From Clostridia bacterium (GTDB lineage Bacteria > Bacillota > Clostridia > Oscillospirales > CAG-272), in the NCBI GenBank assembly GCA_017407225.1, contig JAFQWY010000044.1, positions 25-64,024 on the forward strand: a stretch of DNA of 64,000 nucleotides, given 5' to 3'. Positions within the stretch are counted from its first letter, which is position 1, and every line of letters starts with the position of its first letter. Positions 912-48,947 of the stretch are shown one piece after another. The notes below the pieces were generated by a model that was not told the origin of the DNA, made no database searches, and saw only the letters and a list, made by a program, of their open reading frames with translations. The position numbers and the translations under genes are program-made.

Positions 912-1694
912 TTACCGATCTGCCGCAGAATTCCTGTGAAGCCAGCGTGCAGGATTTTCATGGATATATTTTTTCCGGATCAGATAGTCTTCCTTGTCCC
1001 GGATGATATGTTCGATATAGGATCGCTGAAAGAGATCACACCCGATTTCCCGATTGCAGAACCGCTTGAAAGCCCGGATTACTTCCGGCAGCTTTTCGTT
1101 GGCACGGCGATTTCCGGAGCTTTCATCATCGTTTTGGCAAATTCCGCTGCCCTTTACGCAGTCGATTCCACCTTCGGTAGGGGACGGCGCCCCCGACGTC
1201 CCGGAACCAATACATACGGTAGGGGACGGCGCCCCCGACGTCCCGGAACAAATACATACGGTAGGGGACGGCGCCCCCGACGTCCCGGAACAATCCCTTC
1301 CCGATGTTCCGGCAGACCCTGTAAGTATTACAATCACATGGATATGATCCGGCATGATTACATATTGATCGATCAATACACCGGTGATTTTTTCACTGGC
1401 AAGCAGATGCTTTTCAATGATTTTTCCCGTTTCAGTCAGTTGTACCAGCGGTTTGCCGTAATGCGGGACGTCGAGGGCGCCGTGATTCGGGACGTCGGGG
1501 GCGCCGTAATGTGGGACGTCGAGGGCGCCGTCCCCTACCGAAGTTAACGCGATTGAGGGGGAGGAGGGGAGTTTGATTTCGGACAACCGGATGGCATGAT
1601 TTTTGATGCGTATGGTAACAAAATATGCGCCGGCGGAGCTGTAGTTGTAATGCTCCAGACGCAGTTTTTTTCGCTCGGGAAAGTCTTGTTTCAT
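912..1694 (-). CDS. REP-associated tyrosine transposase (RAYT, IS200/Y1 HUH family) with internal REP-derived tandem insertions
   Basis: The layout matches E. coli RayT/YafM-type proteins: N-terminal YSSAGAYFVTIRIKN, HUH motif VIMPDHIHVIVIL, and C-terminal FQRSYIEHIIRDKEDYLIRKKYIHENPARW carrying the catalytic Tyr. The 260-aa ORF is longer than my recollection of typical RAYTs because of the two repeat arrays. Confidence 0.85.
   Translation of the reverse strand: MKQDFPERKKLRLEHYNYSSAGAYFVTIRIKNHAIRLSEIKLPSSPSIALTSVGDGALDVPHYGAPDVPNHGALDVPHYGKPLVQLTETGKIIEKHLLASEKITGVLIDQYVIMPDHIHVIVILTGSAGTSGRDCSGTSGAPSPTVCICSGTSGAPSPTVCIGSGTSGAPSPTEGGIDCVKGSGICQNDDESSGNRRANEKLPEVIRAFKRFCNREIGCDLFQRSYIEHIIRDKEDYLIRKKYIHENPARWLHRNSAADR
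1177..1302 (-). repeat. Three tandem 42-bp units, each containing the REP core GTAGGGGACGGCGCCCCCGACGTCCC (+ strand), in frame inside the RAYT ORF
   Basis: REP cores lie at 1177-1202, 1219-1244 and 1261-1286. The period is exactly 42 nt (14 codons). On the coding strand they translate as 3 x SGTSGAPSPT(VCI). Confidence 0.95.
1465..1538 (-). repeat. Three tandem 24-bp units of the reverse-complement REP (GGGACGTCGRGGGCGCCGT..), in frame inside the RAYT ORF
   Basis: Units start at 1465, 1489 and 1513, a period of 24 nt (8 codons). Only the third carries the full ...CCCCTAC end. They translate as VGDGALDVPHYGAPDVPNHGALDVPHYG. Confidence 0.95.
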
Positions 1695-4965: not shown

Positions 4966-6330
4966 TTATTTCGTCTTGAAGTATTTTGCCCACATCTTTG
5001 CGGACTTTGCGGTGGTGTGCTTCATTTCTTCGGCATCTGCATCGCCGGTGAGGTACTGACGCATGATTTCGCCGTCTACAGCGGTCTGACGGTCGTGAAC
5101 GGGATAGAAGTTTTCCATCAGGAAGCATGCATACTTCTGGAAGCGGTGCTCGCCCACCAGACGGAATTCCGCGGAAATGGAGTCAACGGCAACGCTGTAT
5201 CTGTCCTTGACGGACTGGATGATATCGCCGCGCTCGTTCTTGTGGGCGAATACGATGGTGGAGCAGATATCCGAGTTGCGGTTGTGCTCGGTGGAGCCGT
5301 GGCTGTCCGTGGAGCCTACGATGGGATGAACCCGTCCCTGACGGTATTCGTCGTAGTACAGCGCGGTCTGGAAGCCGTTGTGTTCGTAGTAGTTTTCGCC
5401 GCCCAGAACTTCAAAGGCATCAAAGGGATGCTTTGCCAGCATATACTTGGTGAAGGGTTCGGGAATCTGCCACATATCGGACAGCCAGTAGGGATGTGCA
5501 AACACGCCCAGACCGCCTGCCTGACGGATCTTTTCAAACGCCCATACGCATACCGCGTACCAGCGGCTGTTTACATTGGAAGGGCAATCGGTCAGGTTCT
5601 TTTCGATTTCGTCCACCTCCGCGTTGTACTGCTCCATGGATACGATATCGGGGCAGTCAACGGTTTCGTCGAAGCGGCGCTTGTCGAGCTCCCCGTCGGT
5701 TTCCTTATAGTTCGCAAGATTTTCCAGCAGACCGTTGACGGAGAACAGACCGCCCGCGTTGACGATGTGCACATCGGTCTGGGGCAGGTGAACTTCTTCG
5801 CCGGGGAGGATGTTCAGGGGAATTTCGGTATCGGCGTATGCGTTCATGGCTTCCAGGGAAGGATAATACCGTCCGTGGTCGGTGACAACGATGAAGTCAT
5901 AGCCTCTCTTGCGGTAGTTGGCGCATACCACTGCGGGAGCTTCCCGACCGTCGGAGCGGCAGGTGTGCATATGGAGGTCGCCGCGGAGAGGGATACGGCA
6001 CGCCATATCGTCGGCGAGAGCGTACAGGGAAAGCTGCAGAACGCGGGAGTCGCCCCTGAACACGCGGACGATCAGCTCGGTTTCCGCCTCAGCGGTATAG
6101 GTGAAGCGCAGGCATCCGTCCTCTTCGGGGGAGAGCTCGTAATCGGTGCGGTTCCAGGAGGAGAAATCCTGACGGGGAGAACCGGAATCCACGCGCATCA
6201 CGGACACGCGGTAGCTGCCGGAGAACGCTGCGTGCGCGCCCTGGGGCTTGATGGTGATTTCGGTGGGATCGTTCACGGGGAACACCATGGGGAAGATGTC
6301 GTAATCGTAGAGAACCTGCTTCATTTTCAT
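4966..6330 (-). CDS. PHP-domain metal-dependent phosphoesterase with an N-terminal beta-rich extension
   Basis: GDLHMHTCRSDGREAP...GYDFIVVTDH...VHIVN...GSTDSHG are the His/Asp clusters typical of the PHP (polymerase and histidinol phosphatase) fold. GGAGGT RBS is present. Confidence 0.75.
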   Translation of the reverse strand: MKMKQVLYDYDIFPMVFPVNDPTEITIKPQGAHAAFSGSYRVSVMRVDSGSPRQDFSSWNRTDYELSPEEDGCLRFTYTAEAETELIVRVFRGDSRVLQLSLYALADDMACRIPLRGDLHMHTCRSDGREAPAVVCANYRKRGYDFIVVTDHGRYYPSLEAMNAYADTEIPLNILPGEEVHLPQTDVHIVNAGGLFSVNGLLENLANYKETDGELDKRRFDETVDCPDIVSMEQYNAEVDEIEKNLTDCPSNVNSRWYAVCVWAFEKIRQAGGLGVFAHPYWLSDMWQIPEPFTKYMLAKHPFDAFEVLGGENYYEHNGFQTALYYDEYRQGRVHPIVGSTDSHGSTEHNRNSDICSTIVFAHKNERGDIIQSVKDRYSVAVDSISAEFRLVGEHRFQKYACFLMENFYPVHDRQTAVDGEIMRQYLTGDADAEEMKHTTAKSAKMWAKYFKTK

Positions 6331-24293: not shown

Positions 24294-24319
24294 GGGACGT
24301 CGGGGGCGCCGTCCCCTAC
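24294..24319 (-). repeat. Solo REP (GGGACGTCGGGGGCGCCGTCCCCTAC)
   Basis: On the + strand it reads identically to the 1177-1302 units as read on the RAYT coding strand (i.e. their reverse complement), and it matches the third unit of the 1465-1538 array except at one position. It starts 6 nt after the activase stop. Confidence 0.9.
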
Positions 24320-29691: not shown

Positions 29692-29788
29692 GTAGGGGAC
29701 GGCGCCCACGACGTCCCGTTGCGTTGAATTAAGATGTGTTATATATCTGTAATTCTTCGTTTCGGGACGTCGGGGCGCCGTCCCCTAC
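29692..29788. repeat. REPIN-like doublet: forward REP (29692-29717), 46-nt spacer, inverted REP (29764-29788)
   Basis: GTAGGGGACGGCGCCCACGACGTCCC ... GGGACGTCGGGGCGCCGTCCCCTAC. This is the same core as inside the RAYT gene. Confidence 0.9.
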
Positions 29789-31258: not shown

Positions 31259-31355
31259 GTAGGGGACGGCGCCCCGACGTCCCGAAACAAAGGATTACAG
31301 ACACAAAATACGTCTTAATCCAATGTCTCGGGACGTCGAGGGCGCCGTCCCCTAC
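31259..31355. repeat. REPIN-like doublet: REP (31259-31283), 46-nt spacer, inverted REP (31330-31355)
   Basis: The spacer is the reverse complement of the 29718-29763 spacer at 34 of 46 positions by hand alignment. The whole element is therefore inverted relative to 29692-29788. Confidence 0.9.
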
Positions 31356-48839: not shown

Positions 48840-48947
48840 GATTTCCGCAAGGAAATCAACCTTAACTGCCGCAGGCAATTTCACTTTCCGCAGGAAAATT
48901 TCACGCTGCGAAGCAGTATTTCACTCACCGCAGGTGAATTTCACTCT
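48840..48947 (-). repeat. Palindrome plus four 20-bp-period direct repeats (minus-strand unit GTGAAATTnnCCTGCGG)
   Basis: ATTTCAC recurs at 48878, 48898, 48918 and 48938, exactly 20 nt apart. CCGCAGG-like cores lie at 48845, 48869, 48888, 48908 and 48928. The palindrome GATTTCC-GCAA-GGAAATC is at 48840-48857. Confidence 0.85.

Follow-up and report, generated by a model that had tools for sequence, protein, structure and literature searches.

A TnpA_REP-like gene family of gut Clostridia carries paired, covarying REP hairpins in frame on either side of its HUH-coding segment

Why would the gene of a putative REP-associated tyrosine transposase (RAYT) contain, within its own reading frame, the repetitive extragenic palindromic (REP) sequence that is also found in the DNA around it? 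The question is raised by a 64,000-nt stretch of DNA from a Clostridia bacterium (the window; positions 25 to 64,024 of contig JAFQWY010000044.1, assembly GCA_017407225.1), in which a reverse-strand open reading frame (ORF) close to the left end had been predicted, from the letters alone, to be a RAYT-type gene with REPs inside it, in frame and in both orientations. Sequence matching bore this out. We consider it rather likely that the ORF is an intact member of a Clostridia-wide clade of RAYT/TnpA_REP-like genes, and that it carries two of its own cognate REPs in frame, maintained as local DNA hairpins.

When the 26-mer GTAGGGGACGGCGCCCYCGACGTCCC was used as a query, we found seven matches with three or fewer mismatches in the window and none in 100 shuffles. 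The 5' array of the ORF had been described as three 24-nt units of the forward REP. The period of 24 stands (Tandem Repeats Finder [TRF]: 3.2 copies, 1455-1531, 86% matches), but only the first unit is a full REP with the GTAG head and the left half of the stem; units 2 and 3 are 17-nt partial copies of the 3' portion, GGCGCCCNCGACGTCCC, at 1489-1505 and 1465-1481. The claim of three exact reverse-complement REPs in the 3' array, spaced by 42 nt, held in full: they lie on the plus strand, antisense to the gene, at 1177-1202, 1219-1244, and 1261-1286, and each is read as GTSGAPSPT (TRF: 2.8 copies, 1175-1293, 98% matches). Both periods are multiples of three. Folded as single-stranded DNA (ssDNA), the REP forms a free 5' GTAG, a 6-bp stem, a G.A mismatch, a 2-bp stem, and a 4-nt loop, and this design is common to all variants. 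An Rfam scan found no known RNA family covering the REP or the RAYT gene. Just upstream of the 3' array, at 1303-1330 on the minus strand, lies GGAACATCGGGAAGGGATTGTTCC (peptide GTSGRDCS), itself a small palindrome, which looks like a degenerate extra REP-like unit.

The paired REPs are not peculiar to this copy of the gene. The 120 closest homologues come from Clostridia metagenome assemblies and are 169-324 residues long. Alignment showed VGDGALDVP and GTSRAPSPT to be single-copy family motifs that have been expanded independently in many members: 86 of the 120 have one copy of each, in agreement with the original prediction that clostridial homologues carry single motifs, and 30 have more than one of either, with differing unit lengths. 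In the window gene both motifs are tandemly expanded. The two motifs change together as reverse complements, in the pairs VGDGALDVP/GTSRAPSPT, VGDGAPDVP/GTSGAPSPT, VGDGAFDVP/GTSKAPSPT, and VGVGALDDP/GSSRAPTPT. A scan of one genome per GTDB species returned at least 558 relatives, from which we kept 80 loci, all in Clostridia metagenome-assembled genomes (MAGs), each examined with 10 kb on either side. Approximately 70 of 84 ORFs contain a near-perfect inverted repeat of 26-33 nt that starts with GTAGGG and has one arm on either side of the HUH-coding segment, with scores of 20-31 versus 7-13 for a direct-orientation control. Of 74 ORFs, 73 have arm 1 in frame 0 and all have arm 2 in one and the same frame; the spacer between them measures 134-308 nt (median 155). 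Arm 1 falls in the loop of a beta-hairpin before helix A and arm 2 in the loop that joins the HUH strand to helix C, and the GTAG ends of both arms point outward, flanking the HUH-coding segment. The fixed position and frame argue that the two REPs are an ancestral, fixed part of the gene's architecture rather than the outcome of repeated random insertions. By these alignments, the paired in-ORF REPs are a covarying, family-wide feature.

The covariation is that of a hairpin. Across 65 distinct arms, 98.8% of stem cells in the alignment were paired, and shifting the stem partner abolished pairing. Changes on both sides of a pair occurred in 80 cells versus 19 in shuffles, a count that none of 500 shuffles reached, phylogeny not being corrected for. 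Variation is concentrated in three covarying pairs of the 6-bp stem, positions 7-9 with 22-24; positions 8:23 show all four Watson-Crick pair types, and a G.U pair was seen in only 1 of 520 cells. The 6-bp stem is perfect in 65-69 of 74 arms. Within the REPs, valine is encoded by GTA (68/68), glycine by GGG (67/68), and proline by CCG (60/68), whereas for conserved Val, Gly, and Pro residues in core motifs outside the REPs every synonymous codon is found, which argues for selection on nucleotides and not on protein. Codon usage and stem covariation thus rule out protein-level conservation of both motifs, and we give almost no credence to the wider view that VG.G..D.P and G.S..P.PT are kept for their amino acids and that the extragenic repeats are gene fragments or by-products. 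Almost every sequence in the family alignment has the two motifs, as that view would have it, but the residues that vary are exactly those coded by the covarying stem bases, both motifs sit in low-confidence loops of the structure models, and the extragenic copies share with the gene the hairpin only, not the flanking coding sequence. At position 17 of arm 2, a base that gives a Trp codon never occurs (74 ORFs), which suggests that the REP peptides are translated and mildly constrained.

The original prediction had also pointed to a long-range inverted-repeat structure around the catalytic segment. Such a structure is indeed predicted for the window copy: folding of a 411-nt stretch of the mRNA gives three long-range duplexes, one inside the other, at -220.4 kcal/mol (z = -10.7 versus shuffles), which is plausible in physical terms, and the arms of many homologues are near-perfect inverted repeats of 26-33 nt, as would be expected if a duplex of RNA or ssDNA spanning the HUH segment were selected because it throttles translation, triggers RNase III, or forms a cruciform. 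Its evolutionary conservation did not hold up. At 12 loci the arms differ from each other by compensated stem changes, such that each arm retains a 6/6 stem while the arm-to-arm duplex acquires two to four mismatches; loop position 17 is unlike between arms in 33 of 74 ORFs; G.U pairs are all but lacking; and the numbers of 5' and 3' units are unmatched in orthologs of the window gene (three and two, or four and one). The compensated arm differences and discordant loop positions led us to reject the arm-to-arm duplex as a conserved feature, and selection for a long-range structure of any of these kinds appears improbable. Judged from the alignments, the conserved unit is the local hairpin, neither the long-range duplex nor the amino acids.

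Is the protein what its motifs suggest? The ORF is open over its full length, and the HUH and Tyr motifs that had been read in it are both intact. H117, H119, and N247 are invariant across an alignment of 107 homologues; Y243 is invariant in an alignment of 28 sequences and nearly so in that of 107, and N247 is invariant in both. TnpA_REP proteins have Asn, not Gln, four residues after the catalytic Tyr, followed by Pro (YxxxNP; PMC6006769), and YIHENP has this form. The family consensus signatures are PDHIH, FQR, and YIxENP. We built an AlphaFold2 model of the 260-aa protein on the 107 homologues. Its core is confident, with a predicted local distance difference test score (pLDDT) above 90 at residues 22-41, 83-124, and 198-259. 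A Foldseek search with the model gave E. coli TnpA_REP (4er8_A) as the top PDB match (E 2.3e-5, target-normalised TM-score 0.57), followed at ranks 2-30 by TnpA proteins of the IS200/IS605 family. Together with the conserved catalytic residues, this supported the placement of the protein among Y1/HUH enzymes, closest to TnpA_REP. The segment between the arrays does code for the HUH motif, as predicted, and in the model it comprises strands at 83-86, 106-113, and 117-124 and a helix at 88-102, all with pLDDT above 90, the HUH motif lying on strand 117-124. The pLDDT falls to 47-60 over residues 42-82, which correspond to the 5' array, and to approximately 38 over residues 125-197, which correspond to the 3' array. 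In a structure model of a minimal relative of 169 residues, both single motifs are likewise in loops, and the motif after HUH has pLDDT below 50. According to these models, the REP-encoded peptides are disordered loops.

The copy number of the arrays varies among close relatives. The window gene lies directly 3' of a PALP (cysK-like) gene, and the orthologous locus is present, with conserved gene order, in two further genomes (L201 and L202). The 3' array has three units in the window, two in L201, and one in L202; the 5' array has three, three, and four, respectively. These differences consist of whole 42-nt or 24-nt units, with the frame kept. It is therefore very improbable that the tandem units are assembly errors or that the gene is decaying. 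Repeats of this kind assemble poorly from short reads, and at other loci frameshifts lie within or beside the REP arrays (L025 10000-10650, L050 6000-6574, and L027 9846-10363) or the ORF has a premature stop (L011 10000-10528). Against this, the window ORF is intact with all catalytic residues conserved, an independent ENA assembly (P0001) encodes an identical 260-aa protein, and the expansions in 30 of the 120 closest homologues differ in unit length. Unless the frameshifts and stops are themselves assembly errors, changes in the arrays can also inactivate the gene. At L025, a 58-nt unit, not a multiple of three, is repeated.

Outside genes the window contains five REP copies, all intergenic and 6-70 nt past stop codons, at the positions given in the original prediction (Table 1). 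Four of them form two doublets: 29692 (plus strand, one mismatch) is paired with 29764 (minus strand, a 1-nt loop deletion), and 31330 (minus strand) with 31259 (plus strand, a 1-nt loop deletion). The two doublets are homologous over approximately 98 nt, palindromic spacer included, which is the arrangement of a REPIN (REP doublet forming a hairpin). Similar doublets were found at L011, L043, L058, and L061. The GTAG ends point outward in the doublets of the window, L011, L043, and L061, and inward in others (L058 2280-2397 and 13320-13436; L027 18203-18331; L076 5653-5722); both dimer geometries therefore exist in this REP family. A resemblance between the REPIN spacer and the 42-nt in-ORF unit, limited to a short AACAAA-like stretch, was too weak to retain. 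When the window REP was sought in metagenomes, 122 of the 128 matches listed were not near a RAYT, and an ORF of at least 100 aa spanned 15 of 106 listed copies versus 1,870 of 2,400 random positions (78%). Since the metagenome copies are mostly outside ORFs and RAYTs, the window REP is a true dispersed extragenic repeat, a status to which the shuffles of the window also speak.

Table 1. Features of the RAYT-like gene and REP copies in the window
Feature	Position	Strand	Evidence or remarks
RAYT/TnpA_REP-like Y1 HUH gene	912..1694	-	ORF listing; intact, 260 aa
Tyr motif YIHENP	951..968	-	catalytic Y243; N247 four residues downstream
3' array, 42-nt units, three exact REPs reversed relative to the gene	1175..1293	-	TRF; sequence match
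Inter-array segment, 162 nt	1303..1464	-	encodes beta strand, helix A, a further strand, and the HUH strand
HUH motif PDHIHVIV	1329..1352	-	homologue alignments; H117 and H119 invariant in family
5' array, 24-nt units, encodes VGDGALDVPHYGAPDVPNHGALDVPHYG	1455..1538	-	TRF; partial-core matches
Arm 1, complete forward REP GTAGGGGACGGCGCCCTCGACGTCCC, read VGDGALDVP	1513..1538	- (coding strand)	sequence match; ssDNA fold
Single REP, exact copy	24294..24319	-	6 nt past stop codon of 1006-aa ORF
REPIN-like inverted doublet, ~98 nt, GTAG ends outward, palindromic spacer	29692..29788	.	intergenic
Second REPIN-like doublet, homologous to the 29692 doublet	31259..31355	.	intergenic, between convergent ORFs

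The REPs dispersed around these genes match the ones embedded in them. In 1.1 Mb of flanking sequence, cognate REPs occurred at 0.28 per 10 kb versus 0.02 for non-cognate cores. Two MAGs have paralogs with different REPs (L011/L025 in JAZNBA01 and L043/L061 in JAZRRX01), and in both the extragenic doublets close to one paralog correspond to the other paralog's REP. Two RAYT paralogs per MAG with different in-ORF stems were also seen for L001/L005 (JAZNNG01) and L076. REP type correlates with protein relatedness (Spearman 0.42), but it can change fast. In L064 and L079, which are 86% identical in the protein core, three stem base pairs differ, fully compensated and in both arms, which argues for replacement of the whole REP rather than stepwise mutation. 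A different REP design occupies both ORF slots at L060 (9979-10495), L048 (8546-9134), and L014 (5868-6258): GTAGGGGAGGGGCTTGCTCCTCCC, the in-slot REP of L060 (peptide VGEGLAPPA), and GTAGGGGCGTGCATTGCACGTCC. It would seem from this that a slot can exchange one REP type for another as a whole. We considered, and discarded, mobilisation of the HUH segment as a REPIN, as a search of approximately 2 Mb of loci yielded only full-length paralogs.

The main rival to selection for embedded hairpins is that the REPs are neutral passengers, inserted once into two permissive loops of an ancestral RAYT gene and since homogenised with the REP family of the genome by ordinary gene conversion, with no role for gene or enzyme. 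We regard this as unlikely, though a serious contender. The modelled disorder of the encoded loops would suit it, REPs inserted in frame are on record for many unrelated genes (PMC3733652) and for tnpA_REP genes of subclass 2.4 (PMC6006769), and the ORFs that lack in-ORF REPs (L044 and L020) or whose arms have decayed (L065 and L075) are still open. What speaks against it is the constancy of the feature. Over family-level divergence, 73-74 of 74 ORFs have the arms at one position and in one frame, and neutral intergenic REPs are not as a rule conserved at orthologous sites across such distances. The stems have remained perfect in most arms, though most loci have no extragenic copy within 20 kb, and the two arms agree at positions 11, 14, and 15 as well, which are unpaired (74 ORFs).

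On the reading that we favour, an enzyme gene with its own cognate hairpins in frame, the protein would bind, cleave, or rejoin REP hairpins in ssDNA by analogy with E. coli TnpA_REP, and its own gene would be its nearest substrate. That the enzyme recognises the in-ORF hairpins is what we infer from this analogy; action in cis, or a role of the embedded REPs as donor or regulator, may be proposed. The in-ORF slots would be overwritten repeatedly by the dispersed REP/REPIN family, and could in turn seed that same family, so that enzyme and substrate would be inherited together and change specificity together. Wholesale compensated switches and local amplification of arrays fit this overwriting and seeding proposal. 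In the window gene, both slots have grown by whole units into short tandem arrays, which would have arisen by slippage or by strand transfer between adjacent REPs, and the translated REP peptides would be tolerated as disordered linkers. A stronger version is possible, if tentative and in our estimate not the probable one: the embedded pair could be a functional self-recognition module instead of a tolerated passenger, its hairpins serving as permanent master copies that seed and reset the REP/REPIN population. The enzyme might then also bind its own gene or transcript and limit its own expression, and the three variable stem base pairs would form a specificity code that is switched by wholesale REP replacement.

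Several observations weigh against the reading that we favour. The protein scores below the thresholds of Pfam PF01797 (Y1_Tnp; 15.5 bits, cutoff 23) and NCBIfam NF047646 (REP_Tyr_transpos; 47.7 bits, cutoff 80). As regards the putative action in cis and the putative donor or master-copy role, in approximately 2 Mb of loci we found no orphan HUH-coding modules flanked by REPs. The covariation counts ignore phylogeny. A cognate extragenic REP lies within 10 kb on either side at only 14 of 72 loci, and at the others the pool could be absent. Finally, the ORFs at L044 (9949-10821) and L020 (5713-6565) are without in-ORF REPs yet look intact, and the arms at L065 and L075 are decayed, which indicates that the embedded copies are not indispensable. 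Directly past the stop codon of these two REP-less ORFs lies, in one case, a REP doublet and, in the other, a tandem array of REPs, a REPtron-like state that may be ancestral or reverted.

The nearest precedent is among the tnpA_REP genes of subclass 2.4 (Bertels Group 4), in which REPs are inserted in frame, in most cases in the part from HuH to Y (Quentin, Siguier, Chandler, and Fichant 2018, PMC6006769). The insertion loop of that subclass is variable in length owing to short repeats and was judged peripheral to the active site; the signatures are NH[IFV]H, WQ, and YIxNNP (Table 1 of PMC6006769); and the hosts are Cyanobacteria, Bacteroidetes, and "various phyla," with REPs also flanking the gene (PMC6006769). 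The Clostridia genes are alike in carrying REPs that leave the tnpA_REP frame undisrupted, in the loop that follows the HuH strand and precedes helix C: in the window protein, the 3' array corresponds to residues 125-197, between strand 117-124 and helix 198-217. They differ in their signatures (DHIH, FQ, and YIxENP), which are not those listed for subclass 2.4, and in having a second REP of opposite orientation upstream of HUH. Throughout the clade the REPs keep their position and frame, the two arms covary, and most genes have no REPs beside them. In the window, no REP was found outside the ORF between positions 1 and 24293, unlike a REPtron, in which REPs flank the gene, and among the homologous loci a REP lies within 300 nt of the ORF at only a few (L017, L034, L046, and L055). 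The original prediction had called REPs within the ORF unusual by comparison with flanking ones; the gene is indeed not flanked, but subclass 2.4 provides the precedent (PMC6006769). Intragenic REPs in general, including those in many unrelated genes, have been catalogued (Di Nocera et al. 2013, PMC3733652). In-frame REPs in tnpA_REP genes were thus already known. We found nothing earlier on Clostridia or Firmicutes beyond PMC6006769, PMC3733652, and PMC5581495, the supplementary files of PMC6006769 do not mention Clostridia, and in the literature searched the Clostridia clade, the additional inverted REP on the upstream side of HUH, and the covariation across the family all appear to be undescribed.

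The E. coli system of TnpA_REP/RAYT and REP-BIME (BIME, bacterial interspersed mosaic element; 4ER8; Nunvar 2010, PMC2817692; Ton-Hoang 2012, cited in PMC6006769) shares with the window protein the Y1 HUH fold, the HUH motif, and a catalytic Tyr with Asn at +4 and then Pro. In both, the REP has a 5' GTAG and forms a GC-rich, imperfect hairpin; its copies are scattered outside genes, for the most part on their 3' side, and there are one or two copies of the enzyme gene per genome. The Clostridia clade has FQ in place of WQ/WE, its REPs are embedded in the ORF at two loops rather than flanking it, its hosts are gut Clostridia and not Proteobacteria, and its sequence similarity to E. coli TnpA_REP is marginal (phmmer of the 260-aa protein versus 4ER8: E = 0.23; scores below the Pfam and NCBIfam cutoffs). 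A precomputed Pfam domain is absent from nearly all homologues. REPIN-RAYT systems of Pseudomonas and Enterobacteria (Bertels and Rainey; PMC5581495, PMC8049555) likewise have inverted doublets that form a long hairpin, a single-copy RAYT that is inherited vertically (gene order being conserved here in three relatives), and a REP family tied to each RAYT. There, flanking REPINs are the ground for linking RAYT and REPIN, whereas the cognate REP of this clade is inside the coding sequence. TnpA of IS200/IS605 elements (IS608, ISDra2) has the same fold and the same logic of recognising ssDNA hairpins. There, however, the gene lies between ends of like orientation and moves with the element as a whole, while here the hairpins are within the ORF and inverted, and the RAYT-like gene shows no sign of mobility of its own; the IS200/IS605 enzymes also have Y...Q where the clade has Y...N. 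Other intragenic REPs and the Rickettsia palindromic elements (PMC3733652) are similar in being palindromes translated as tolerated extra peptides, but they are sporadic, in unrelated genes, and not conserved between species, whereas these lie in the gene of the repeat's own enzyme and, in the related genes that we examined, are conserved and covary.

RAYT-REP pairing and its evolution are usually inferred only from repeats that adjoin the gene. In this clade, the sequences by themselves reveal hundreds of putative pairs of enzyme and substrate in gut Clostridia, and they include same-genome paralogs with different hairpins and relatives 86% identical with completely switched stems. Such pairs may be of use for studying how HUH/Y1 enzymes recognise DNA hairpins, for testing whether REP-RAYT systems are co-inherited partners, and for designing programmable ssDNA tools. 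The clade extends REP/RAYT biology, known mainly from Proteobacteria and Cyanobacteria, to uncultured gut Firmicutes, and the embedded REPs account for the VGDGALDVP/GTSRAPSPT motifs and the length variation of proteins that are mostly without functional annotation. If the self-recognition proposal were true, the RAYT gene would be a self-contained unit of enzyme plus substrate, with a specificity code available for hundreds of natural pairs.

Some minor features of the window were noted as well. A 215-aa ORF at 900-1547 on the plus strand covers the greater part of the RAYT gene in antisense, with the REPs translated as GRGRRPRRP. It probably exists only because REPs lack stop codons in more than one frame, and it could mislead gene callers. 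A weak tblastn match at 5408-5533, where no REP is present, was dismissed as chance. A Gut-1 RNA (Rfam RF01706), unrelated to the REPs and in keeping with a gut-metagenome source of the window, lies at 48873-48946 on the minus strand (75.6 bits; gathering score 50).

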